DNA of 64,000 nt from assembly GCA_009711805.1 (NCBI GenBank), contig VEMX01000028.1:59307-123306 (forward strand). The letters are read 5' to 3'. The translations under genes and the position numbers were made by a program. Numbering within the stretch: the stretch's first letter is position 1; every line of letters starts with the position of its first letter. The stretch comes from Balneolaceae bacterium (GTDB lineage: Bacteria > Bacteroidota > Rhodothermia > Balneolales > Balneolaceae). A model generated the notes under the pieces. It was not told where the DNA came from and ran no database searches. It worked only from the letters and a program-made list of their open reading frames with translations. Of the stretch, positions 11,259 to 22,261 are shown one piece after another.

Positions 11259-13077
11259 GTATTCTATAGCCATGGGAATGGAGAATATGAAAAATAGTAT
11301 TGTATTGATTTTAGCGTGTTTACTGACGACAGCCTGCTCGGGAGAACAGCAGACACAAAAACGGGCTTCGTATGATCCCCCCAAGTGGGCTGAAGGAAGA
11401 ATTTGGTATCAAATATTTCCGGAACGTTTTAGGAATGGAGATCCCTCTAATGATCCGGACAGAGCCCGGGCTCGCGGACCGGAAGGTTGGGAAATAAGTG
11501 AATGGACAACCGATTGGTATGCACGGGCTTCGTGGGAAAAGGAGGCTACGGATGATTTTTACGCTATCGTCAGAGAGCGAAGATATGGGGGAGACCTCCA
11601 GGGAGTCATCGACAAACTGGATTATTTGAAAGAACTGGGGATTGGCGGCATCTATTTCAATCCAATTTTTGATGCACAATCAATGCATAAATATGATGGC
11701 TCCTATTATCATCATATAGACCGGAATTTTGGCCCAAACCCAGAAGCTGATACTGCATTATTTAACAGGGAAGATCCGGGAGATCCTGCAAGCTGGGAGT
11801 TTTCTTCAGCTGATTCTTTATTCTTGGAATTGCTTGAAGAAGCTCATAAACGCGATATCAAAATTGTAATCGATGGAGTTTGGAATCATACCGGGACCGA
11901 GTTTTGGGCATTTCAGGATTTAGTGAAAAACCAGCAAAATTCCCCTTATAAGGAATGGTATATTGTTAATTCCTTCGACAATCCTGCTACAACGGACATC
12001 AGTGAATTTGATTATGAGGGCTGGTGGGGGTTTAAAGGTTTGCCCGTTTTCAGAGAAGAACAGGAAAACCTGGTTCGTCCAATTCGTGAGCATATTTTTG
12101 CCGTCACCCGCCGGTGGATGGACCCGAATGGAGATGGAGACCCCTCGGATGGAGTGGATGGCTGGCGGTTGGATGTAGCCTCGGAAGTGGGAAAAGAATT
12201 CTGGAAAGACTGGCATGAGTTAGTGTATCAGTTAAACCCGAAAGCCATTACTTTTGCGGAAATATGGACGGATGAAGCCAAAGAATTTATCAGCGCAGAT
12301 TTATTTACTTCTGTAATGAATTACCGTTTTGCCTATGCAGCCAAGGATTTCCTGATTGATGATCGTATTGATACGCAGAAATTTATTCGACGGCTAAATG
12401 CACTGGAAGATGAATATCCGGAAGGAAGTGTATATGTACTCCAAAATTTACTGGATAGCCATGATACGGCCCGCCTGGCATCGATGATTGTAAATCCTGG
12501 CCTGGAATACGACCGTGACGGGCATCCACGGGATGGTTTTAAAGTACGTAAACCAAACACCAAAGAAAGGAAAGTGCAGCGGTTGGTTGCCTTGTTTCAG
12601 TTTAGCTGGAGAGGAGCACCTATGATCTATTATGGAACAGAGGCCGGGATGTGGGGAGCTGATGATCCTGATGATCGTAAACCTATGGTATGGAATGATT
12701 TATCTTATGAACCCGAGTCCGTGCATCCTTTGGGTAAAGAACGTCCCCAAGACGACAATAATTTTGATGAGGAACTTTTCAAATACTACCAACAGTTAGC
12801 TGAACTGCGCACTCAATCGCAAGTATTACAGAGGGGGAGTGCTGAGTTCATCTACCAGGATGCTGCTGCAAAAGTAGTTGCCTTTCAGCGGGAACTGGAG
12901 GGGCAAAACCCGATTTATGTATTCCTGAACCGCTCAGCTGATTCCCAGTTTGTGACTATTGAACTACCTGTTGCCAAAGACGAACTAACAAACCTGATTT
13001 CAGGTGAAAGAGTGCAGCTAAAAGAAGGAACTCTTGCCTTTGAAATACCATCAGTATCTGGAGTAGTACTTCAGTAG
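11245..13077 (+). CDS. GH13 alpha-glucosidase/neopullulanase-like lipoprotein
   Basis: GH13 regions VIDGVWNHTG, DGWRLDVASEV, FAEIWT and LLDSHDTARL. A start at ATG 11287 gives MKNSIVLILACLLTTAC (lipobox). The 11245 start would overlap the MFS gene by 14 nt. Confidence 0.9.
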   Translation: MKRTKYSIAMGMENMKNSIVLILACLLTTACSGEQQTQKRASYDPPKWAEGRIWYQIFPERFRNGDPSNDPDRARARGPEGWEISEWTTDWYARASWEKEATDDFYAIVRERRYGGDLQGVIDKLDYLKELGIGGIYFNPIFDAQSMHKYDGSYYHHIDRNFGPNPEADTALFNREDPGDPASWEFSSADSLFLELLEEAHKRDIKIVIDGVWNHTGTEFWAFQDLVKNQQNSPYKEWYIVNSFDNPATTDISEFDYEGWWGFKGLPVFREEQENLVRPIREHIFAVTRRWMDPNGDGDPSDGVDGWRLDVASEVGKEFWKDWHELVYQLNPKAITFAEIWTDEAKEFISADLFTSVMNYRFAYAAKDFLIDDRIDTQKFIRRLNALEDEYPEGSVYVLQNLLDSHDTARLASMIVNPGLEYDRDGHPRDGFKVRKPNTKERKVQRLVALFQFSWRGAPMIYYGTEAGMWGADDPDDRKPMVWNDLSYEPESVHPLGKERPQDDNNFDEELFKYYQQLAELRTQSQVLQRGSAEFIYQDAAAKVVAFQRELEGQNPIYVFLNRSADSQFVTIELPVAKDELTNLISGERVQLKEGTLAFEIPSVSGVVLQ

Positions 13078-13089
13078 AATCGCCCACAT

Positions 13090-13147
13090 GGGCTTGGTTC
13101 TATGTAATGCCCCCCGATACTCGCTGTAAGACTTAAGAGAGCTTTAG
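13090..13147 (+). repeat. Copy 1 of a roughly 58-nt intergenic repeat
   Basis: gggcttggttctatgtaatgccccccgatactcgctgtaagacttaagagagctttag. The last 29 nt (13119-13147) are identical to 13477-13505. Confidence 0.85.
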
Positions 13148-13445
13148 GGTGGTCCACTACCTTAATCAGTATTGATATGGTTAGTTGCTATGAAGGCTGA
13201 GGTTGCCATATACTTTCACCTCACCTAAATCCTCTCCTGGAGGAGAGGACTTGCTGGGTAATCAATAGATTGTTTGCTCACTTTTAAGATTTTGGATTTT
13301 CTGCTTCTAAACTTATTGGAGGGTATGTACAACAATTCTTCCTCCTAAAGCAAGTCAGAGACTTGCGTGGCTACTGTCCTTAAGACAGCCCTCGCAGAAG
13401 AAGCCTAATTCATCGATCAGACCGGGGATCGGTCAGATCGGGTAC

Positions 13446-13505
13446 GGGGTTTGTTCTGTGTAATGAAACCCCGATTACTCGCTGTAAGACTTAAGAGAGC
13501 TTTAG
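13446..13505 (+). repeat. Copy 2 of the roughly 58-nt intergenic repeat
   Basis: ggggtttgttctgtgtaatgaaaccccgattactcgctgtaagacttaagagagctttag. It contains a 7-bp hairpin, ggggttt (13447-13453) with aaacccc (13467-13473). Confidence 0.85.
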
Positions 13506-13536
13506 ATTCAAAAAGTGAGGGGAAAGAATGATTATA

Positions 13537-13683
13537 TCACTGAAACTTTTTTGCCAGGCTATTTCTGAATTCTTTATTTCTGAGAACCTTCAATTCAAAA
13601 GCATTCATACTTTGTTGAATGGTTAAACTTTCTGTGCGATTTAAATCATCCAGGAAATAAGCCATTTCAATATCAGTGCCCGG
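13537..13683 (-). pseudogene. 3'-terminal remnant (about 48 codons) of a serine beta-lactamase-like paralogue
   Basis: Translates to PGTDIEMAYFLDDLNRTESLTIQQSMNAFELKVLRNKEFRNSLAKKFQ*. This aligns with the C-terminus of the intact gene at 14392-15462 (SGTDIEMAYFLDNLSSVENMSIKQSMNSFELEVLSNSSFREKLS...). Homology stops abruptly at about 13683, where repeat A1 starts. The tracked ORF 13537..13857 is a chimera of this remnant and the repeat. Confidence 0.8.
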
Positions 13684-13823
13684 TGAAATCACACTATCAA
13701 ACCAATCTCCCAGCCTTTTTTTAGTCTCTTTTTTTCTCGCAGAGGCCCGCAGATGAACCGCTGAGTTGCGCAGATGGTGCTGGAATACCGAACGGCATGA
13801 GCGTATCAACTTCAATGTGGCAT
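13683..13823 (+). repeat. Repeat A1 (141 nt), member of the ctcgcaga...gatgaaccgctgagttgcgc family
   Basis: Differs at 2 positions by eye from 14164-14304. Core sequence: tttctcgcagaggcccgcagatgaaccgctgagttgcgcagatgg...tggaataccgaacggcatgagcgtatcaacttcaatgtggcat. Confidence 0.9.
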
Positions 13824-14064
13824 CCAGGCAGTATTCATCCATGAAGATCCGGATCAAAAGACCGTAGCATTCAAACGTTCATTAAAAGGGGAAAGCCCGA
13901 TGTATGTTTTGCTGAATCGATCTGGATCTGCTCAGAGTGTTACTATTTATCTGCCTGATGCCAGGCAGGAACTCCTAAATGCCCTTACCGGAGAATCCGT
14001 TGAGCTAAATAACCAAAACCTTACCATAGAACTCCCTCTGATATCGGGTGTTATTTTGCGATGA
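13822..14064 (+). pseudogene. 3'-terminal remnant (about 80 codons) of a GH13 paralogue
   Basis: Translates to IQAVFIHEDPDQKTVAFKRSLKGESPMYVLLNRSGSAQSVTIYLPDARQELLNALTGESVELNNQNLTIELPLISGVILR*. It is colinear with the last roughly 80 aa of the 11245-13077 product (SAEFIYQDAAAKVVAFQRELEGQNPIYVFLNRSADSQFVTIELPVAKDELTNLISGERVQLKEGTLAFEIPSVSGVVLQ*). There is no start codon or upstream part of the gene. Confidence 0.8.
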
Positions 14065-14125
14065 ATTGATGTGGGTATGTGTGTGCACAGGTTAAGGCGA
14101 TATTTATTTTCTTCTCGTTGTGCCC

Positions 14126-14304
14126 CTCCGCGCAACTCCGCGTCTAACTCTGCGAAACTCTGCGTGAAATCACACTATCAAACCAATCTCCCAGCCTTTT
14201 TTTAGTCTCTTTTTTTCTCGCAGAGGCCCGAAGATGAACCGCTGAGTTGCGCAGATGGTACTGGAATACCGAACGGCATGAGCGTATCAACTTCAATGTG
14301 GCAT
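14126..14304 (+). repeat. Repeat A2, with a leader of four degenerate decamers (AACTCYGCG-type) plus the 141-nt unit
   Basis: 14126-14164 reads ctccgcgcaactccgcgtctaactctgcgaaactctgcg. It is followed by 14164-14304, which is nearly identical to A1. Confidence 0.9.
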
Positions 14305-14391
14305 TCCTAAAAACCCAATTATCCGGCCCGTAAACAACCTGACCTCCCTCCGCTAAAAACTTAATTGGGTTAACGTATTAACGCGGGCATG

Positions 14392-15462
14392 TTATTTCCC
14401 CTCAAGCATGGTCGATAGTTTCTCTCTGAACGATGAGTTGCTGAGGACTTCCAGCTCAAAACTGTTCATACTTTGTTTTATCGACATATTTTCCACAGAA
14501 GATAAGTTGTCAAGAAAATAAGCCATTTCAATATCAGTGCCCGATTTGGTAGTGGCATATAACGCCTTGGTAAGAACAAAAGCCGTAGAACCGCCCTTCA
14601 TACCTGAGTGTTCTAACCACTCTTGGTTAGCGGGATTTGTCATAACTACTTCCATAATGGGGTTTAGGGTAGCATGAACTTTCTCCGAAAAGTAGGACCG
14701 GCTGTTAATTTTGTCCATGACGGAGGTATAAGTTGAAGCTGTAGAAGCCGGTAAATGCTCAGACCATATTTTTTGGGCATCCATAGTAAGCGAGCTAAGG
14801 CTAAATTCGTTTTTCATGGAAGTGTCACTTTGAAGAGTATAGAAGACATCAGTACTTTTTTTACGATACTCATTGAGTGATAATTCCGAAGCATCGATGG
14901 TCTCATCATTAAACAGATACAGAGAGGAAATAAAAGGGTAGATGGGTTCATGATTTTTGATATCAAGACTGTCCAATCGGTTATTTACATTCTCTATACC
15001 CAGTTTCATGAGCAGAAACTCCGTATTGGCATTAGAGCTGAACCAGATCATGCCCTTTGCAACATCATGCAGAGTCACTTGTCCGTTGTTTACCAATCCT
15101 TGTTTGGTAATCATATTTAGCCAGGCAGGGTGTGTGCCTCCATCGGTATTGGGAATATAGAATCGCCTCAGTTCAGAAAGCGAGACCCTTTCACCGGGAT
15201 CTATTGTTCCGGCGGCCGCTTGTTCTGCAAACTCAACAGCTATTATGATTTTTACTGTACTTGCAAGAGGCATCATTCGATCCGCATTATAGTTTACCAG
15301 CACAGAATCATCCACAACCAAATGCAAAGATGCTTTCTCAGGATTATTCTTTATAAACTCGGCGATCTGCTTAGGAGAGGAAACGAGGTTTAGGTGAGAG
15401 GTAGTCCCTGTTATCACTATCAGTGTGGTGCAAACAGAAAGGCAAAAGAGAAATCGTTTCAT
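14392..15462 (-). CDS. Serine hydrolase, class A beta-lactamase / penicillin-binding-protein-like
   Basis: Signal peptide. SxxK motif LASTVKI, SxN motif FSSNANTEF, and a KTG-like motif MKGGST. Confidence 0.8.
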   Translation of the reverse strand: MKRFLFCLSVCTTLIVITGTTSHLNLVSSPKQIAEFIKNNPEKASLHLVVDDSVLVNYNADRMMPLASTVKIIIAVEFAEQAAAGTIDPGERVSLSELRRFYIPNTDGGTHPAWLNMITKQGLVNNGQVTLHDVAKGMIWFSSNANTEFLLMKLGIENVNNRLDSLDIKNHEPIYPFISSLYLFNDETIDASELSLNEYRKKSTDVFYTLQSDTSMKNEFSLSSLTMDAQKIWSEHLPASTASTYTSVMDKINSRSYFSEKVHATLNPIMEVVMTNPANQEWLEHSGMKGGSTAFVLTKALYATTKSGTDIEMAYFLDNLSSVENMSIKQSMNSFELEVLSNSSFREKLSTMLEGK

Positions 15463-15520
15463 CGTTTCGTTTTATTCATTAAGGTTCTAACTTTGCACTT
15501 TACGAAATAAACTATTTAGA

Positions 15521-16048
15521 ATGCGCTTAAAAGAAAAACAGTTTGTTCCTTTCATAGTAGGGGTAGCATTATTGTCTGTGATTGTGATTGTATTTTCTTC
15601 TTTCCGTTTCAAGCAAAAACAAGAGAGAATGTTTGCAGAAAACCTGCAAAAGTCGAAGCTGCTTCAGTCAACGATGATGTACAAGGTTGGGAGCCCGGAT
15701 AGTTTGACCCTATCCAGTTTAAAGGGAAAAAATGCGTTGTTGGTATTTTGGGCCAGCTGGTCCGATAAGTCTGAGTTGATGCTTAATGAGATTGATTTAT
15801 TAGCCAGCGAAAGAGACTCCCTGGTGGTGCTGGCTGGATTGGTAAAAGATGCCGAGGAATCGTTCTCCAGTGTAAAAAAATACAAAGGCTTTGTTTATGT
15901 TGACGGAACCTATCTGTTCAACGAGCTGAAAGTGCCGGGTATACCCAGTTATGTGCTCTTTAATAAAGATGGGACGGTTATGCATTCCAATATAGGCTAT
16001 CAAAAGGGAGTGGGATACGATACCCTTAAAGCCCGGCTAAATGAATAA
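15521..16048 (+). CDS. Membrane-anchored thioredoxin-fold (TlpA/ResA-like) protein lacking the CxxC cysteines
   Basis: N-terminal TM segment. LLVFWASWSDKS stands where TlpA-type proteins have WAxWCxxC. The fold signature VPGIPSYVLFNKDG is conserved. Confidence 0.7.
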   Translation: MRLKEKQFVPFIVGVALLSVIVIVFSSFRFKQKQERMFAENLQKSKLLQSTMMYKVGSPDSLTLSSLKGKNALLVFWASWSDKSELMLNEIDLLASERDSLVVLAGLVKDAEESFSSVKKYKGFVYVDGTYLFNELKVPGIPSYVLFNKDGTVMHSNIGYQKGVGYDTLKARLNE

Positions 16049-16898
16049 ACCAAGCTTTATATTGCTGGATGGCACATTGTGTGAAGAATCAGAAGCCTTG
16101 GTTTCTCCAATCAACAGAGGTTTGATGTATGGAGACAGCTGTTTCGACACCTTAAGATTATATCATGGGCAGTTTCTGCAGTGGGAACGGCATTTTGCAC
16201 GGTTAAAGGAAGGATTAGGATATCTTCGTATGGGCTGTCCGTGGTCTTCTTCAGAATTAAAAAAGGACATAATGAAATTACTCCGGGAAAATGGATTAAC
16301 CCAGGGGGATGCCATGGTCAGGCTCCAGGTATGGAGAGAAGGTGGCCGGGGATATAGAACCGAGGCAAGCGGGGCGAGATGGATGATACAAGCCTCACCT
16401 TATGAAGCCGATAAAGACAAAGCACTTAATCTAACAATAGCAGAAACCCGCTGTATCCCATCCAAATCACTAAAGCGAACCGTTAAGCTGGGGAGCGGCT
16501 TGAACTACGTACAGGCTGCCGCTGAGGCCCGCGATGCGAATTGTGACAATGCTCTTATGTTCACCATTGATGATTATATAAGTGAAACCACCACCGCCAA
16601 TGTATTTTGGGTAAAAGGTCACAGGTTGTTTACTCCTTCTGTAAGCTGTGATCTGCTGCCTGGTGTAATGAGAAGTATAATCATAGATCTGTGTAAACAG
16701 GAAGGAATCCCGGTTATCCAAGGAGAATACCAGCGTGATGAGTTAAAGGAAGCGGAAGCCCTGTTCTGCTGCAATTCACTCATAGAGATACAACCGGTGC
16801 ATACCGTGGGAGATTTAACCTTTGATGAAGATCACCAACTCATCCAGAAGCTGAAACAGCTAATATCCGGCTATAAAGAAATTCATCTCAAAGAATGA
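16041..16898 (+). CDS. pabC: Class IV aminotransferase-fold enzyme, probably aminodeoxychorismate lyase
   Basis: PLP fold-type IV features (NRGLMYGDSCFDT.., ..SETTTANVFWV.., GVMR). Start and stop overlap with the upstream gene and with folC, a context that favours PabC over IlvE. Confidence 0.7.
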   Translation: MNKPSFILLDGTLCEESEALVSPINRGLMYGDSCFDTLRLYHGQFLQWERHFARLKEGLGYLRMGCPWSSSELKKDIMKLLRENGLTQGDAMVRLQVWREGGRGYRTEASGARWMIQASPYEADKDKALNLTIAETRCIPSKSLKRTVKLGSGLNYVQAAAEARDANCDNALMFTIDDYISETTTANVFWVKGHRLFTPSVSCDLLPGVMRSIIIDLCKQEGIPVIQGEYQRDELKEAEALFCCNSLIEIQPVHTVGDLTFDEDHQLIQKLKQLISGYKEIHLKE

Positions 16899-18142
16899 GC
16901 CGCTTCAAAACAATAGAAGATGTATGGGATTACCTGGATGCCATCCCCCGGTTTCAGTCTGCAGGAGATAAGGCAGTGCATTATTCTCTGGATACAATCA
17001 AAGCATTTTGTGCATCTGTGGGCAACCCTCAGGATAGGTTTCCATCTATACACGTAGGTGGAACCAACGGTAAAGGGACAACCAGCCATATTTTGGCAAA
17101 TATATACAATGATGCAGGCTTCACTACCGGTTTGTTTACTTCACCTCATTTGGAAGTCTATAATGAAAGGGTGCGTGTTGCGGGAAAGAATATCACCGAT
17201 GAGCAAATGGTGATATTCTTTCGTAATTATGAAGAGCTGTTAAACCAGTATAACCTCAGTTATTTTGAAATCAGTACAGTTCTCGCATTTTGGTATTTTT
17301 CCGAAGCAGAAGTTGACCTGGCTATAATTGAAGTGGGATTGGGAGGGAGGCTGGATTCCACAAATATCATTACACCGGGGCTATCAGTAATAACCAGTTT
17401 AAGCCTGGATCATCAACAAATGCTGGGGGACCAGATCCAGGATATAGCACATGAGAAAGCAGGTATTATCAAAAAAGGGGTGCCGGTTGTTGTTGGAAAT
17501 CTGCCCGGTGAAGCTCTGCAGATCATACAGGAAAGAGTAAGAAAGACGGGCAGCAAAATGTATGCTGTTTCTGATTTAGAACCGAAATGGAAGCACGGAT
17601 TGTTTACGCTCAAAACAGTGGGTGTCACTCTTAAAACAAATGTAAGAGAACCTATAAATAAATGGAACCTGGCGATGGCCTGGCAGGTAGTACAGTTATT
17701 GAATGAAAAGTTTCCGGTTGCCAACGAATCACTTAAAACTTCGTTAAGCGAATTTAAAGGTGCTCGCGGAAGATTTGAGAAGCTCAGTCCCGAATATGAA
17801 TGGTATTTTTCCGGTTCTCATAATATGGAAGCAGTAGATGCCCTGTTGGAGACCGTTAGAGAGTTGGGTGAAATTACAGAGACAGTATTGGTGTTCTCAT
17901 CAGTGAAGGATAAGATCAGTAAAGAGTATCTGGAACGCTTTCAAGGTTTTAAAAAAGTATATTTTTATCAGCAAGAAGGAGAAAGAGCGGCTAAAAATGA
18001 AGATCTGTCGGGCATTATAACCCCTGAATTGATCGATAATGACAATTTTGAGATTATTTTAAAGGAATTGCAGACAGAGTTAGTAATTTTTGCAGGAAGT
18101 TTTTACTTTTATCCTATCATTAAACGATGGACCAAGGCTTAA
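16895..18142 (+). CDS. folC: Bifunctional folylpolyglutamate synthase / dihydrofolate synthase
   Basis: Mur-ligase-family P-loop HVGGTNGKGTT, SPHLEVYNERV, and the HEKAGIIKKGVP motif. Confidence 0.9.
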   Translation: MSRFKTIEDVWDYLDAIPRFQSAGDKAVHYSLDTIKAFCASVGNPQDRFPSIHVGGTNGKGTTSHILANIYNDAGFTTGLFTSPHLEVYNERVRVAGKNITDEQMVIFFRNYEELLNQYNLSYFEISTVLAFWYFSEAEVDLAIIEVGLGGRLDSTNIITPGLSVITSLSLDHQQMLGDQIQDIAHEKAGIIKKGVPVVVGNLPGEALQIIQERVRKTGSKMYAVSDLEPKWKHGLFTLKTVGVTLKTNVREPINKWNLAMAWQVVQLLNEKFPVANESLKTSLSEFKGARGRFEKLSPEYEWYFSGSHNMEAVDALLETVRELGEITETVLVFSSVKDKISKEYLERFQGFKKVYFYQQEGERAAKNEDLSGIITPELIDNDNFEIILKELQTELVIFAGSFYFYPIIKRWTKA

Positions 18143-18256
18143 AAACATTCTTCCATCGCATTTTTATCCTTACCTGATTGAATATCCTGTCTCGTTACTT
18201 TGGTAACATGATGTTCACCCCAAACTCAGTAAGTATCATAATAACAGCTACAATTT

Positions 18257-19798
18257 ATGTCAGATAATCAGACCGCCGGAATTACGGCCGGGGACTTAGA
18301 TTCTTTAGAAAAGAAGAAACTCCACGAGCTGCAAACATTTGCAAAATCTTTAGGAATAAAGCGCGTAACAGGAATACGTAAAGCCCAGCTCATCGAAAAT
18401 ATTCGGGAAAAAGCTCAATCTTTAAATGCTGAAAAAAAGCATCGGGAAGAAGAAAACCAGAAGGATGGCAGAAATTCTGCAAACAAAGAAGATGAGATGA
18501 CTTCCTATGGGGGGCAAGACCATATTGTCTCTTATAAAAAGCAGGAAGAAAAGAAAGAGAATAAAAAGAAGAAATCGCACAATCGAAATACTCAGCGTCG
18601 CAAAGGGCATGAGCACAACAAGCTGCCGGAGTCGGAAGCAACTACTCTTGAAGAACGCATTGAAGAGTTAAGACCTGGTTTGGGGCCATACCTTTTTAAT
18701 GAAGGTACGCTTGAAATTTTACCCGATGGTTATGGGTTCCTCCGCTCGGTGAACTACAATTATAAAGCCAGTCCGGATGATATTTATGTATCTCCTTCAC
18801 AAATTAAACGCTTTAGACTAAAGCAGGGCGATTGTGTAATAGGGATTATCCGTCCCCCAAAAGTAGGTGAACGATATTTTGCTTTACTCCGGATTGAAGG
18901 TGTTAATGGGCGTATTCCCCATGACATGGACAATCGCAAAGATTTTGAAGACATGCTCCCCATTCACCCCGACCAGCGATTCCGCCTGGAGCATAAGTCT
19001 ACTGAATACTCTACCCGCCTCATTGATATGTTTGCTCCATTAGGAAAAGGCCAAAGGGGATTGGTAGTGGCACAGCCAAAGACAGGTAAAACCACTATTC
19101 TCCGGAATATTGCCAATGCCGTTTCTGAAAATCATCCTGATACAAAAATTATTATTGTACTGATTGATGAACGCCCGGAAGAGGTTACCGAAATGGAACG
19201 CACAGTTGAAAGTGCTGAAGTAGTTGCCTCAACCTTTGATGAAAAACCAGAAAACCATATTGGCCTTGCAGAGATTGCTTTTGAAAAAGCCAAACGACTG
19301 GTTGAAAGCGGTCATGATGTATTGCTATTGATGGATTCTATTACCCGTTTGGCACGAGCATATAATATCTGTGCATCTAACAAGGGGCGTACCATGACCG
19401 GTGGTGTTGATTCTGAAGCTCTTAAAGCTCCCCGTCAGTTATTCAGTTCTGCTCGTAATATTGAAAACGGTGGTTCGCTTACCATCCTGGCTACAGCCCT
19501 TATCGATACCGGCTCGCGTATGGATGATGTGATTTTTGAAGAATTCAAGGGTACCGGTAATATGGAAATATACCTCGATCGCCGACTCTCGGATCGTCGT
19601 TTATATCCCGCAATCGATATTTTCCGGAGTGGAACACGACGTGAAGAGTTATTGGTTGCCGAGGAAGAACGCGAGAAGATAGTACTACTTCGACGTTACC
19701 TCACCAATATGAATGCGTTTGAAGCCATGGAATTCCTGCTCGACAAAATTAAAGGAACTAAAGACAACGAAGAGTTTCTCATTTCAATGAATAAATAG
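18257..19798 (+). CDS. rho: Transcription termination factor Rho with a K/E/N-rich N-terminal insertion
   Basis: Rho N-terminal helix bundle [14 protein letters not shown]. Charged low-complexity insert of about residues 55-125. CSD-like [14 protein letters not shown]. Walker [20 protein letters not shown]. Confidence 0.95.
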
Positions 19799-19828
19799 GC
19801 GCCAATGTGTACGTGGATGGTGAACTGG

Positions 19829-19980
19829 TCCGCGCGAAACTACTATACCCAAACCAACCTCCCGGCCTTTTTTCCAGTTCCCTTTTCTCGCAGATTCCCG
19901 CTGATGAACCGCTGAGTTGCGCTGATGGTTTTTGGAATACGGACGGCATGAGCTTAAGAACTTAAATCCCCATCATCCGG
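19829..19980 (+). repeat. Repeat B1 (diverged member of the A-repeat family)
   Basis: ...cgaaactactatacccaaaccaacctcccggccttttttccagttcccttttctcgcagattcccgctgatgaaccgctgagttgcgctgatggtttttggaatacggacggcatgagc...atccggcccg. It is colinear with A1/A2. Confidence 0.85.
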
Positions 19981-19983
19981 CCC

Positions 19984-20116
19984 GCTCCGCGTAACTCTGC
20001 GCATAACTCCGCGAAACTCCGCGTGAAACTATTCTACCCAAATCAACCTCCCGGCCTTTTTTCAGTTCCCTTTTCTCGCAGATTCCCGCTGATGAACCGC
20101 TGAGTTGCGCCGATGA
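19984..20116 (+). repeat. Repeat B2 (decamer leader plus core, 3'-truncated)
   Basis: ctccgcgtaactctgcgcataactccgcgaaactccgcgtgaaactattctacccaaatcaacctcccggccttttttcagttcccttttctcgcagattcccgctgatgaaccgctgagttgcgccgatg. Confidence 0.85.
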
Positions 20117-20160
20117 ATTTAGTGAGGATGAAAGAACAGATTATGGAATTTCATCTTTAG

Positions 20161-20259
20161 GCTTTTTCTCTACAGGAAGCCGGAGCTTCTCTCCTAAAGG
20201 ATGACCATATCACAGGTTGTATTAAGAAGCCAGAGTTTCTCATCTCAATGAATAAATAG
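20161..20259 (+). pseudogene. Short diverged duplicate of the rho 3' end
   Basis: Translates to [32 protein letters not shown], compared with the rho C-terminus [27 protein letters not shown]. The last 27 nt (20233-20259) match 19772-19798 at 26 of 27 positions. Confidence 0.65.
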
Positions 20260-20458
20260 AAGATTTGGTGTCTTCTCCCAAAGCGGATTAACCTGGTTTA
20301 GAAGGTGTAATGTGTGCAAAATGTCGCTTCGAAAGGAATTGAAAGCGCTTCCTGTAATTTGTCTTACTTTTTTGTTGGCATTTTAGGATAATATCAGATA
20401 TCCTCAGCTACCTTATTAATTCAATATGTAGTAGTAACAAGCACCAAAAGAACACTCA

Positions 20459-22261
20459 ATGGCTTTATCGGGATTAGACTGGGGTATTATTGCTCTATTT
20501 TTCATCATTGTGCTGGCAATCGGCTGGATCACTTCCAAAACAGCAGGCAAAAACACCGAAGAATATTTTTTAGGGGGGCGATCTATGCCGTGGTGGCTGC
20601 TGGGTATTTCAATGGTAGCTACTACCTTTTCAGCGGATACCCCAAACCTTGTTACTGGCTTTGTGCGCGAAGGTGGAGTTGCCAAGAACTGGGCGTGGTG
20701 GGCTTTCCTGATTACAGGGATGGTCACCGTTTTTATATATGCGAAATTATGGAGGCGATCGGGAGTTGCCACCGACCTCGGACTCTATGAACTGCGATAT
20801 GGCGGTAAACCGGCTTCTTTCTTAAGGGGTTTCAGGGCTTTATATCTTGGTCTCTTTTTTAATTGCCTGATTATGGGTACGGTAACCCTGGCAGCGATTA
20901 AGATTGGAGGGATAATGCTGGACCTGGAACCTTTCACAGTGGTGGGCATAGTAAGTGTGGTTGTAATTATATACTCAAGTCTTGGGGGGATTAAAGGGGT
21001 CATCTGGACTGATTTCTTTCAATATGGGATTGCTACCGTAGGAGCGATTTATGCAGCTTACGTAGCGGTCAATCAACCCGAGATCGGCTCACTCGCAAAT
21101 CTGCTGGATAACCCGGTTTTACAGGGTAAATTGAATATTATGCCCGATATTTCTGACCCGTCGGTATTTGTGACTATGCTGATTATCCCCATAGCCGTTC
21201 AATGGTGGGCCGTGTGGTATCCCGGGGCAGAACCAGGAGGCGGCGGCTACATAGCCCAACGTATGCTTTCGGCCAAAGATGAAAAAAATGCCATCGGAGC
21301 TACCCTTCTTTTTAACTTTGCACATTATGCTTTAAGGCCCTGGCCCTGGATTATTGTAGCTTTGGCTTCCATTATCCTGTATCCCGATCTGGCTTCTATC
21401 AAGGCAGAGTTTCCCAATATTACAGATCAATATCTTGGACATGACATCGCCTATCCGGTTATGCTCACCAAGCTGGGCACAGGCTGGCTTGGACTGGTAG
21501 TAGCCTCGCTGATTGCGGCGGTAATGTCAACCCTGAGTACTCACCTCAATTGGGGGGCTTCCTATATTGTTAGTGATTTCTATCAGCGTTTTCTAAAACC
21601 TGATGCAACAGAGAAGCAACAAGTTATGGTTGGGAGAATATCCACCGCTGTATTAATGATATTGTCGGCCATACTGGCATTAACCATTCTCGAGAATGCT
21701 ACCCAGGCTTTTGATATTCTGTTACTCTCTGGAGCTGGATCCGGGGCTATCTATCTGTTGCGATGGTTCTGGTGGCGGATCAATGCCGTAACGGAGATTG
21801 TAGCCATGGTATCAGCCACTATTACTGCTTTTATACTGGTATTGGTGGTTCCGGATGAAGCCGTAGCTACTGCCTTATTAGATGCTTCCTCGGTTAAGCT
21901 GCTGATTGCTATTGCTATTACAACGGTGGTGTGGCTGGTAACTACATTTACTACCAAGCCCGAGTCAATGGATGTTCTTATCAATTTCTGCAAAGAAGTG
22001 CACCCGGGTGGACCTGGCTGGAGAAAAGTGTCGGAAGAAGCAGAGGCCCGGGGAATTGAATTAAAACAATCCATGACAAAATGGGATATGCCAAGTAGTC
22101 TTTTAAGTGTAATGCTGGGGTGTATTGGTATCTACAGCTCATTGTTTTCGGTAGGTAACTTCCTGTATGGCAATGTAATACAGGGAAGTCTGCTGGCTGT
22201 GGTTGTAGGAATTTCCATTTTCTTGCTCATGAAAGTGTGGACTAATTTAAATATAGAATAA
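20459..22261 (+). CDS. Sodium:solute symporter family (SSS) transporter
   Basis: 600-aa polytopic protein with the typical SSS layout (..GGRSMPWWLLGISMVATTFSADTP.., ..IYLLRWFWWRINA..). Confidence 0.85.
   Translation: MALSGLDWGIIALFFIIVLAIGWITSKTAGKNTEEYFLGGRSMPWWLLGISMVATTFSADTPNLVTGFVREGGVAKNWAWWAFLITGMVTVFIYAKLWRRSGVATDLGLYELRYGGKPASFLRGFRALYLGLFFNCLIMGTVTLAAIKIGGIMLDLEPFTVVGIVSVVVIIYSSLGGIKGVIWTDFFQYGIATVGAIYAAYVAVNQPEIGSLANLLDNPVLQGKLNIMPDISDPSVFVTMLIIPIAVQWWAVWYPGAEPGGGGYIAQRMLSAKDEKNAIGATLLFNFAHYALRPWPWIIVALASIILYPDLASIKAEFPNITDQYLGHDIAYPVMLTKLGTGWLGLVVASLIAAVMSTLSTHLNWGASYIVSDFYQRFLKPDATEKQQVMVGRISTAVLMILSAILALTILENATQAFDILLLSGAGSGAIYLLRWFWWRINAVTEIVAMVSATITAFILVLVVPDEAVATALLDASSVKLLIAIAITTVVWLVTTFTTKPESMDVLINFCKEVHPGGPGWRKVSEEAEARGIELKQSMTKWDMPSSLLSVMLGCIGIYSSLFSVGNFLYGNVIQGSLLAVVVGISIFLLMKVWTNLNIE

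Follow-up and report, generated by a model that had tools for sequence, protein, structure and literature searches.

The 3' end of the rho gene is present twice in the stretch of Balneolaceae bacterium DNA analyzed here, a window of 64,000 nucleotides (nt) that corresponds to VEMX01000028.1:59,307–123,306, forward strand, of assembly GCA_009711805.1. The intact gene is followed by a 433-nt patchwork of repeats and gene scrap, and then by an orphan copy of its own last 28 nt. We interpret the duplicated end as a scar left by the host's own recombination or template switching, of the type that displaces gene 3' ends, and not as the work of a site-specific recombinase encoded by an element; we give this interpretation a probability of roughly 0.45. 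The pieces involved are of foreign or ectopic origin, microhomology occurs at three of the joints, and the features of an element are absent. An earlier note on this DNA had described the arrangement as att-like, a wording that is fair for the anatomy and not for the mechanism.

Duplication of the rho end

The rho gene (18257–19798, plus strand; positions are those of the window) is an intact open reading frame (ORF) for a protein of 513 amino acids (aa). The closest Rho proteins are those of the Balneolaceae relatives L013, L014 and L018 (91%, 87% and 86% identical, respectively), where handles beginning with L denote the genomes of relatives (L013, L034 and so on) and those beginning with C denote contigs of the genome under study (C2, C22, C32 and so on). 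The window is C2:59307–123306 in this numbering. Rho, the M29 peptidase discussed below and other proteins of the genome have their top matches in Balneolaceae, namely Gracilimonas, Balneola and metagenome-assembled genomes (MAGs).

The last 27 nt of rho, GAGTTTCTCATTTCAATGAATAAATAG (19772–19798), occur again at 20233–20259 with one mismatch; the coordinates given in the earlier note were reproduced, and no match of this kind arose in 100 shuffles. When the preceding A is added, the duplicated block comprises 28 nt, of which 27 are identical, and the two copies (19771–19798 and 20232–20259, both plus strand) lie 461 nt apart. Copy 1 spans the codons for EFLISMNK and the stop, and contains CATTTCAAT at 19780–19788. 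Copy 2 is an orphan rho end that carries ATC for ATT; the rho end of L013, the closest relative, agrees with it at 27 of 28 positions and also has the ATC. This is the sole second copy of the rho end in the genome, a 4.08-Mb draft. A direct-repeat core is thereby present at both ends of the insert, as it would be in an element bounded by attL and attR. Three nt past copy 2 lies the word ATTTGGT (20263–20269), within a spacer (20260–20458, plus strand) that precedes a gene for a sodium:solute symporter (SSS; 20459–22261).

A comparison set of 30 relatives, all from other genera, provided the context of the locus. A single rho end was found in each relative whose rho end was read, and the gene downstream of rho differs in every relative compared. 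The genes of L014 and L018 follow the order MFS, GH13, tlpA-like, class-IV aminotransferase, folC and rho. A second, shorter Rho-like gene is located elsewhere in the genome under study (C20:14527–15738, minus strand); it encodes 403 aa and is 53% identical to the ATPase part of the Rho of the window.

Mosaic structure of the insert

The insert between the two copies (19799–20231, 433 nt) is a mosaic in which a scrap from an M29 aminopeptidase gene is combined with 1.6 units of a repeat family termed R and one unit of a small family termed S. The scrap measures 35 nt (19799–19833, plus strand). With the preceding four positions included (19795–19833), it is identical at 35 of 39 nt to the 3' region of a Peptidase_M29 gene on another contig (C22:8467–8505; E about 1e-6), and that gene is itself followed by an R array. 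The match to a gene flanked by an R array points to exchange among R-bearing loci; the source of the scrap may be the genome's own gene or that of a relative. The two R units follow directly and correspond to the repeats B1 and B2 that the earlier note had placed between the copies. B1 (19834–19984, plus strand) is leaderless and consists of the core and a 3' tail ending in ATCCGGCCCG, while B2 (19985–20117, plus strand) consists of a leader of four YCYGCG hexamers, a spacer and the core, and is cut off after GCGCCGATGA.

The remainder of the insert is a unit of family S with the hairpin GGAAGCCGGAGCTTC (20133–20231, plus strand), delineated by nhmmer and by alignment with copies on C32, C29, C9, C22 and C35. 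The open frame quoted in the earlier note does exist upstream of copy 2, where it had been read as a weakly rho-like tail. This reading fell when Rho tails were read in 7 family genomes and 3 closer relatives (86–91% Rho identity): the Rho C-terminus is near-invariant among them, and the supposed tail, including the stretch AFSLQEAGASLLKDDHITGCIKKP, does not fit it and matches the S copies instead. The segment 20133–20255 matches C32:25804–25913 (E = 6e-10) and C29:32519–32574 (E = 3e-5), and further matches on C9, C22 and C35 are weaker and non-significant. After the word GCCAGAG, the S copies run on as CTTCTTAA(Y)(R)AGAATAAA, and the copy of the window runs into rho's TTTCTCATCTCAATGAATAAATAG. 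The joint between S and rho is therefore located within AGAG(C/T)TTCT. The first 9 nt of copy 2, AGAGTTTCT, are ambiguous and could be of S or of rho origin, and the part of copy 2 that is certainly derived from rho amounts to 19–28 nt only.

Three of the four joints of the insert show microhomology of 2–10 nt. The joint between rho and the M29 scrap shares ATAGG (19795–19799), which overlaps the rho stop, that between the scrap and R shares TCCGC (19829–19833), and that between S and the rho block shares the AGAG(C/T)TTCT mentioned above. No inverted repeats were found at the ends of the insert, and no second copy of the whole insert occurs in the genome, where only its pieces recur. What remains of the att-like description is an insertion bracketed by a direct repeat of a gene end; a discrete element with decayed cargo does not agree with this mosaic make-up, the lack of inverted ends and the lack of another copy.

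The insert contains no ORF of at least 60 aa, no terminator and no convincing promoter, and shows no similarity to plasmids or phages. Its predicted RNA fold is no better than that of shuffled sequences (z = +0.74). An Rfam search of 8 kb at a permissive threshold gave no RNA family, and no hammerhead was recognized although CTGATGA words are present. A Xer/dif-like reading of the 28-nt blocks was discarded, as dyad symmetry is absent when judged by eye.

A companion scar at the GH13 and bla genes

A similar arrangement, with a larger insert, is found 6 kb upstream of the rho scar. Here, the GH13 gene (end at 13077) is followed by a 460-nt repeat spacer, a remnant of a bla gene, a 28-nt block, a partial R copy (A1), a remnant of a GH13 gene, an R unit containing a second copy (A2), and the bla-like gene with the second 28-nt block. 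The bla-like gene (Beta-lactamase2; 14392–15462, minus strand) contains its block at 14516–14543, with ATTTGGT at 14544–14550. The displaced bla 3' end (13537–13682, minus strand) has 57% aa identity to the gene and ends in the exact block, 13655–13682. A1 (13683–13823, plus strand) directly follows this block and is identical to A2 (14164–14304) at 139 of 141 positions, A2 being part of a full R unit. The orphan GH13 3' end (13810–14064, plus strand) comprises 84 codons and a stop, has no internal stop, and is 50% identical in aa sequence to the resident end. Read along bla, the order is gene, block, an insert of 833 nt formed by the new 3' end, R, the GH13 scrap and R, then block and old 3' end. 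The two blocks are identical at 28 of 28 positions.

Full identity between the orphan bla end and the gene is confined to the block, beyond which about 65% of the nt are identical. All 8 full codons of the block are identical, third positions included, and the next three shared codons (FLD) all differ at that position. The block is therefore the product of copying or crossover and not of conservation. The joint between the block and A1 shares CG.

Both remnants have open reading frames and have kept the residues that are conserved among orthologues, and therefore diverged as parts of working genes and were truncated recently. Because they are open, shaped by selection and only 50–57% identical in aa sequence to the resident ends, DNA of a diverged homologous locus has recombined into the region. 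The proposal of the earlier note that the insert supplied a replacement gene end holds for bla, where the new end is in frame; at rho nothing was replaced, because the duplicated block already contains the stop codon.

Among 201 family genomes, no homologue exceeds 47% identity to the bla-like gene or adjoins a GH13 gene; no bla gene follows GH13 in L014 and L018. The gene is accessory; homologues of 45–47% identity occur in only 6 of the 201 genomes, and it is absent between GH13 and tlpA in relatives. The spacer between GH13 and the bla remnant (13078–13536) is almost wholly made up of other, more abundant repeat families that are present in tens of copies, and contains an internal direct repeat of 58–60 nt.

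Repeat family R

Family R comprises about 47 copies at 19 loci, mostly in head-to-tail arrays with a period of 200–220 nt, and its unit measures about 200 nt. A full unit consists of a leader with four YCYGCG hexamers placed 10–12 nt apart, a spacer of about 50 nt, and a core with four inverted CGCWGA hexamers. The core, TTTCTCGCAGAGGCCCGCAGATGAACCGCTGAGTTGCGCAGATGG, is highly conserved. When the leader is compared with the reverse-complemented core, the two turn out to be imperfect inverted repeats of each other, with z > 3 for 20 of 36 units. A full unit is located at 14122–14331 of the window, and other loci include C4:89546–90317, C10:13324–14216 and C49:14502–15053. The arrays face at least one gene 3' end at 17 of the 19 loci. 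R has the look of arrayed binding sites for a protein, or of a REPIN-like doublet.

Cores of R, recognized by a 32-nt pattern, are also present in Gracilimonas tropica, a Rhodohalobacter MAG and other Balneolaceae MAGs, together with leader-like arms, and the family is therefore older than this genome. R is thus conserved or spreading across genera of the Balneolaceae; it is apparently undescribed and common to several of them. Cores and leader arms were seen in L034 (G. tropica DSM 19535), L032 (the Rhodohalobacter MAG), L030, L031, L035, L036, L037, L039 and L041. In these other genera R forms pairs or short arrays, and in some the core stands ahead of the leader.

The earlier note had envisaged a recombinase associated with the repeat. 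None was encountered: the 9 hits to tyrosine recombinases (PF00589) in the genome are not near any R locus, and neither are the 4 weak or partial hits to Y1 transposases or RAYT (PF01797). No hit to the transposases of the ISNCY/IS1202 type (NF033593, NF033594) was obtained in this draft genome, whose incompleteness keeps the absence from being proven.

A gene for a PD-(D/E)XK nuclease of 139 aa (PDDEXK_3, E = 3e-42) lies between R copies at C4:68310–69953, in a tandem duplicate that is 99% identical and is probably due to unequal crossover between R units. It was considered as a candidate insertion enzyme and rejected, as the gene is found at that one R array and nowhere else in the genome.

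Occurrence of the pattern in the genome

The earlier note had also stated that the repeat appears at the duplicated 3' ends of three genes. This is correct within the window (GH13, bla and rho) and does not extend beyond it. The other 17 R loci have no gene-end remnant, no flanking direct repeat and no ectopic gene scrap, so that the expected triplets of gene end, repeat and remnant occur at 0 of 17 and a general association of R with gene-end remnants was dismissed. Short flanking direct repeats were also lacking at the six R-bearing loci of other Balneolaceae that were scanned.

In a scan of all gene ends of the genome, a unique terminal stretch of 27 nt was found again downstream for rho alone. 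The other hits, besides rho, GH13 and bla, are mostly tandem paralogues or high-copy repeats, with four weak remnant-like candidates on C5, C23, C32 and C48. Isolated direct repeats of 24–40 nt are present elsewhere in the genome, and the four that were inspected (24, 31, 34 and 40 nt) all bracket inserts near gene ends.

Proposed course of events

We infer both the enzymology, which may be a RecA-type crossover or replicative template switching, and the order of events. A patchwork of the M29 scrap, 1.6 R units and one S hairpin unit would have been inserted directly behind the rho stop, and would have been drawn from other repeat-bearing intergenic regions of the same genome or of a related one. 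Copying or crossover would then have re-entered the rho locus about 19–28 nt before its exit point. With re-entry upstream of the point of exit, the original 3'-terminal 28 nt of rho would have been left as an orphan ahead of the old downstream spacer. In formal terms, template switching would have this outcome, as would one crossover, at a short identity, of a small fragment that is either circular or linear. The GH13/bla locus would represent a fuller version of the same process, in which diverged GH13 and bla 3' ends were brought in, the new bla end was attached to the gene, and the old end was displaced behind the 28-nt repeat.

Evaluation of alternative explanations

Host recombination or template switching is preferred because of the mosaic make-up of the insert, the microhomology at its joints, the diverged foreign gene ends, the lack of termini and of an enzyme gene, and the duplication-free R loci elsewhere. 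Several observations weigh against it. Neither the 201 family genomes nor large protein libraries contain a closer match that could represent the donor of the GH13 and bla remnants; the GH13 remnant has no closer relative among 1.8 billion representative proteins, and the window's own ORF was all that came back from a chimeric GH13 query and from a full HMMER search with the remnant. Two metagenome scans for an empty site found nothing. Furthermore, the rho and bla duplications are both 28 nt long, R adjoins both left-hand blocks in the same orientation, the 9-mer CATTTCAAT (CATYTCAAT in degenerate form) stands 8 or 9 nt into both blocks (P = 0.002 against random 28-mers), and ATTTGGT stands 0–3 nt past both right-hand blocks. 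The bipartite word CATYTCAAT-N9-15-ATTTGGT has exactly two occurrences in 4.08 Mb, which are the rho and bla sites (N11/13), and random 43-nt windows share a collinear word pair of this kind with P = 2.9e-5 in a post hoc test. The common length and the common target words are the one regularity that host recombination or template switching leaves unexplained; generic recombination predicts shared words only if the initiating lesion is sequence-dependent or if one event used both alike sites. The regularity may reflect one complex event that made use of both sites as they resemble each other, or it may be due to chance. The two reconstructed empty sites show no unusual similarity when they are aligned with gaps (P = 0.10), and a search with a degenerate target motif gave no enrichment over the control.

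The same regularity could point to targeted insertion with a ruler, in which an enzyme acting in trans (a transposase, an integrase or a nicking enzyme) reads CATYTCAAT...ATTTGGT, cuts about 28 nt apart and installs R-bearing DNA. Such an enzyme would account for two duplications of 28 nt that are exact or nearly exact, for the register of the 9-mer and the uniqueness of the bipartite word, and for the orientation of R, and repeated re-insertion at the same gene position would explain the in-frame substitute 3' end of bla. Target-site duplications of 16–28 bp are known, moreover, in subgroups of the IS1202 family (Hall lab 2023, PMC10132070). Nevertheless, the two inserts are mosaics with microhomology joints that share no termini and have neither inverted repeats nor TGT...ACA ends, the genome provides no matching transposase and no recombinase near R, and the remaining 17 R loci and the six loci in other Balneolaceae are free of duplications. 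In addition, S may be the source of the leftmost 9 nt of the rho block, which makes the figure of 28 uncertain there, the varied lengths of the isolated direct repeats elsewhere (24–40 nt) argue against a fixed ruler, and the resemblance of the empty sites is not unusual once gaps are allowed. Taken jointly with a sequence-dependent initiating lesion, targeted insertion is unlikely. We regard as improbable a new Balneolaceae process that targets CATYTCAAT-N11-13-ATTTGGT near gene 3' ends, duplicates about 28 bp and installs an R-array patchwork, which may carry an in-frame substitute gene end, without any element-encoded enzyme or conserved termini; in one possible form, filler would be synthesized on a template after a site-specific nick or break. 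Should an enzyme, and not chance or mutual microhomology, lie behind the similarity of the target sites, this would point to a new kind of insertion, targeted and with a ruler of 28 bp.

The reading implied by the att-like wording, that a classical integrative element entered the rho 3' end by means of a tyrosine or serine recombinase, left attL and attR as the 28-nt copies and lost its cargo by decay, is very improbable. It agrees with direct repeats that bracket an insert at a gene 3' end and with relatives in which a single rho end is followed by unrelated DNA. However, neither a recombinase gene nor a remnant of one is present in or near the insert, which consists of just 433 nt of genome-wide repeats and housekeeping-gene scrap, resembles no phage or plasmid, and has an S repeat in place of its supposed gene-like arm; full identity over 28 nt at two different targets, bla and rho, would also be unexpected for one attP. 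Replacement of a single block is a further candidate: about 6.5 kb (13683–20231, with the GH13 end, R, bla, tlpA, a pabC/ilvE-like gene, folC, rho and the R array) would have come from a diverged relative, and stumps of the resident genes would have been left outside. The scars bracket exactly that block, the GH13 remnant through the rho stop have the normal contiguous gene order, and both outer stumps are truncated on their 5' sides. Yet the distance to two relatives is the same for inner genes as for outer ones, with identity ratios that reveal no foreign block, and the exact 28-nt identity of bla amid about 65% would be unexplained. Two illegitimate joins would be needed in one event, which is very rare; the rarity of even one-sided illegitimate events has been discussed (PMC5361080). 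We therefore consider block replacement very unlikely. An artefact of assembly, in which two strain variants were joined at repeats, might be suspected in a draft of 99 contigs that is very repeat-rich, but the duplicated gene ends are only 50–57% identical in aa sequence, far beyond strain variation, the shared blocks of 28 nt are shorter than the usual final assembly k-mers, contamination is 0.14%, and the region lies inside a contig of 179.6 kb. An artefact is extremely unlikely.

Comparison with known systems

The scars resemble the C-terminal displacement known from rhs genes, effectors of type VI secretion (T6SS) and contact-dependent inhibition (CDI) loci. Homologous recombination with circular intermediates has been proposed for rhs tips (Jackson et al. 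2009, PMC2935791), and homology-facilitated illegitimate recombination for T6SS arrays (Kirchberger et al. 2017, PMC5361080). As in these systems, an orphan 3' fragment stands behind an intact gene on the same strand (at bla, GH13 and rho, the latter with 28 nt only), the 5' edge of the orphan keeps a short identical piece, the new end stems from foreign DNA, and no dedicated integrase is proposed. By contrast, the genes involved here are housekeeping or ordinary ones (rho, a GH13 amylase, a beta-lactamase-like gene) and not polymorphic toxins, the shared piece has just 28 nt, repeat units are located at the joints, and no coding tip was exchanged at rho. A donor allele in other genomes, which characterizes C-terminal displacement, was not found for the present scars among the 201 family genomes or in the protein libraries.

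The end of an essential gene, rho, and those of two ordinary enzyme genes have thus acquired insertions without destruction of the genes, as the end was duplicated or replaced in frame and the old end orphaned. Displacement of this kind has hitherto been described mainly at polymorphic toxin loci. Its presence at housekeeping genes of a repeat-rich Balneolaceae genome suggests that recombination with diverged DNA leads to it generally, and that its hot spots are marked by palindromic tandem repeats.

R shares several properties with REP, BIME and REPIN repeats and with clusters of miniature inverted-repeat transposable elements (MITEs): it is multi-copy, intergenic and mostly behind gene 3' ends, imperfectly palindromic, clustered and lineage-restricted. 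It differs from them by its head-to-tail arrays with a period of about 200–220 nt, by four hexamers (YCYGCG or CGCWGA) per arm, and by the lack of an adjoining RAYT-like gene. With the IS1202 family, the scars have in common a direct target duplication of 28 bp (at rho and bla) and a possible target preference. Unlike members of that family, they lack a transposase, terminal inverted repeats and conserved ends, and the insert is a mosaic that occurs just once; the ends of the rho and bla inserts are unrelated beyond R itself.

Some prophages and islands enter the 3' end of a gene and provide a substitute end, as do phage 21 and e14 in icd. The bla insert likewise gives an in-frame alternative 3' end, with the old end remaining downstream. 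In contrast to such elements, there is here no integrase or element body, the block of identity stands beside repeats, and the DNA resembles a homologous chromosomal locus.

Other repeats and insertions in the genome

Two CRISPR arrays, C5:101600–104950 and C55:3320–6700, each lie beside a Cas1 gene, with repeats of 37 nt (GTTTCAATCCTTGTTCTAATGGATTATGTATTCCGAC) and about 36 nt. Ectopic integration by Cas1-Cas2 was considered for the scars and set aside, since CRISPR repeats of about 36–37 nt and spacers of 30–36 nt do not correspond to duplications of 28 nt and inserts of 433 and 833 nt.

One of the isolated direct repeats, GAATTTCTATWACGAAGCCTCCAA (24–30 nt; C9:83998–84021 and C9:84473–84496), surrounds a 451-nt insert of two other repeat families, 35 nt past a gene stop. 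Its layout resembles the rho scar, with different repeats. At C9:84229–84462, at C33:42430–42650 and at about 90 other places there is a MITE, about 230 nt long, whose terminal inverted repeats are TTAACCCGRATTATTCAC; the copies on C33 flank an insert of two genes, an ArsR-like gene and one more. Two other isolated repeats surround gene-bearing inserts just past gene ends, an exact 40-nt repeat around 1.9 kb (C15:8271–8310 and C15:10194–10233) and an exact 34-nt repeat around 0.9 kb (C19:5036–5069 and C19:5918–5951), and both may be further recombinational insertions.

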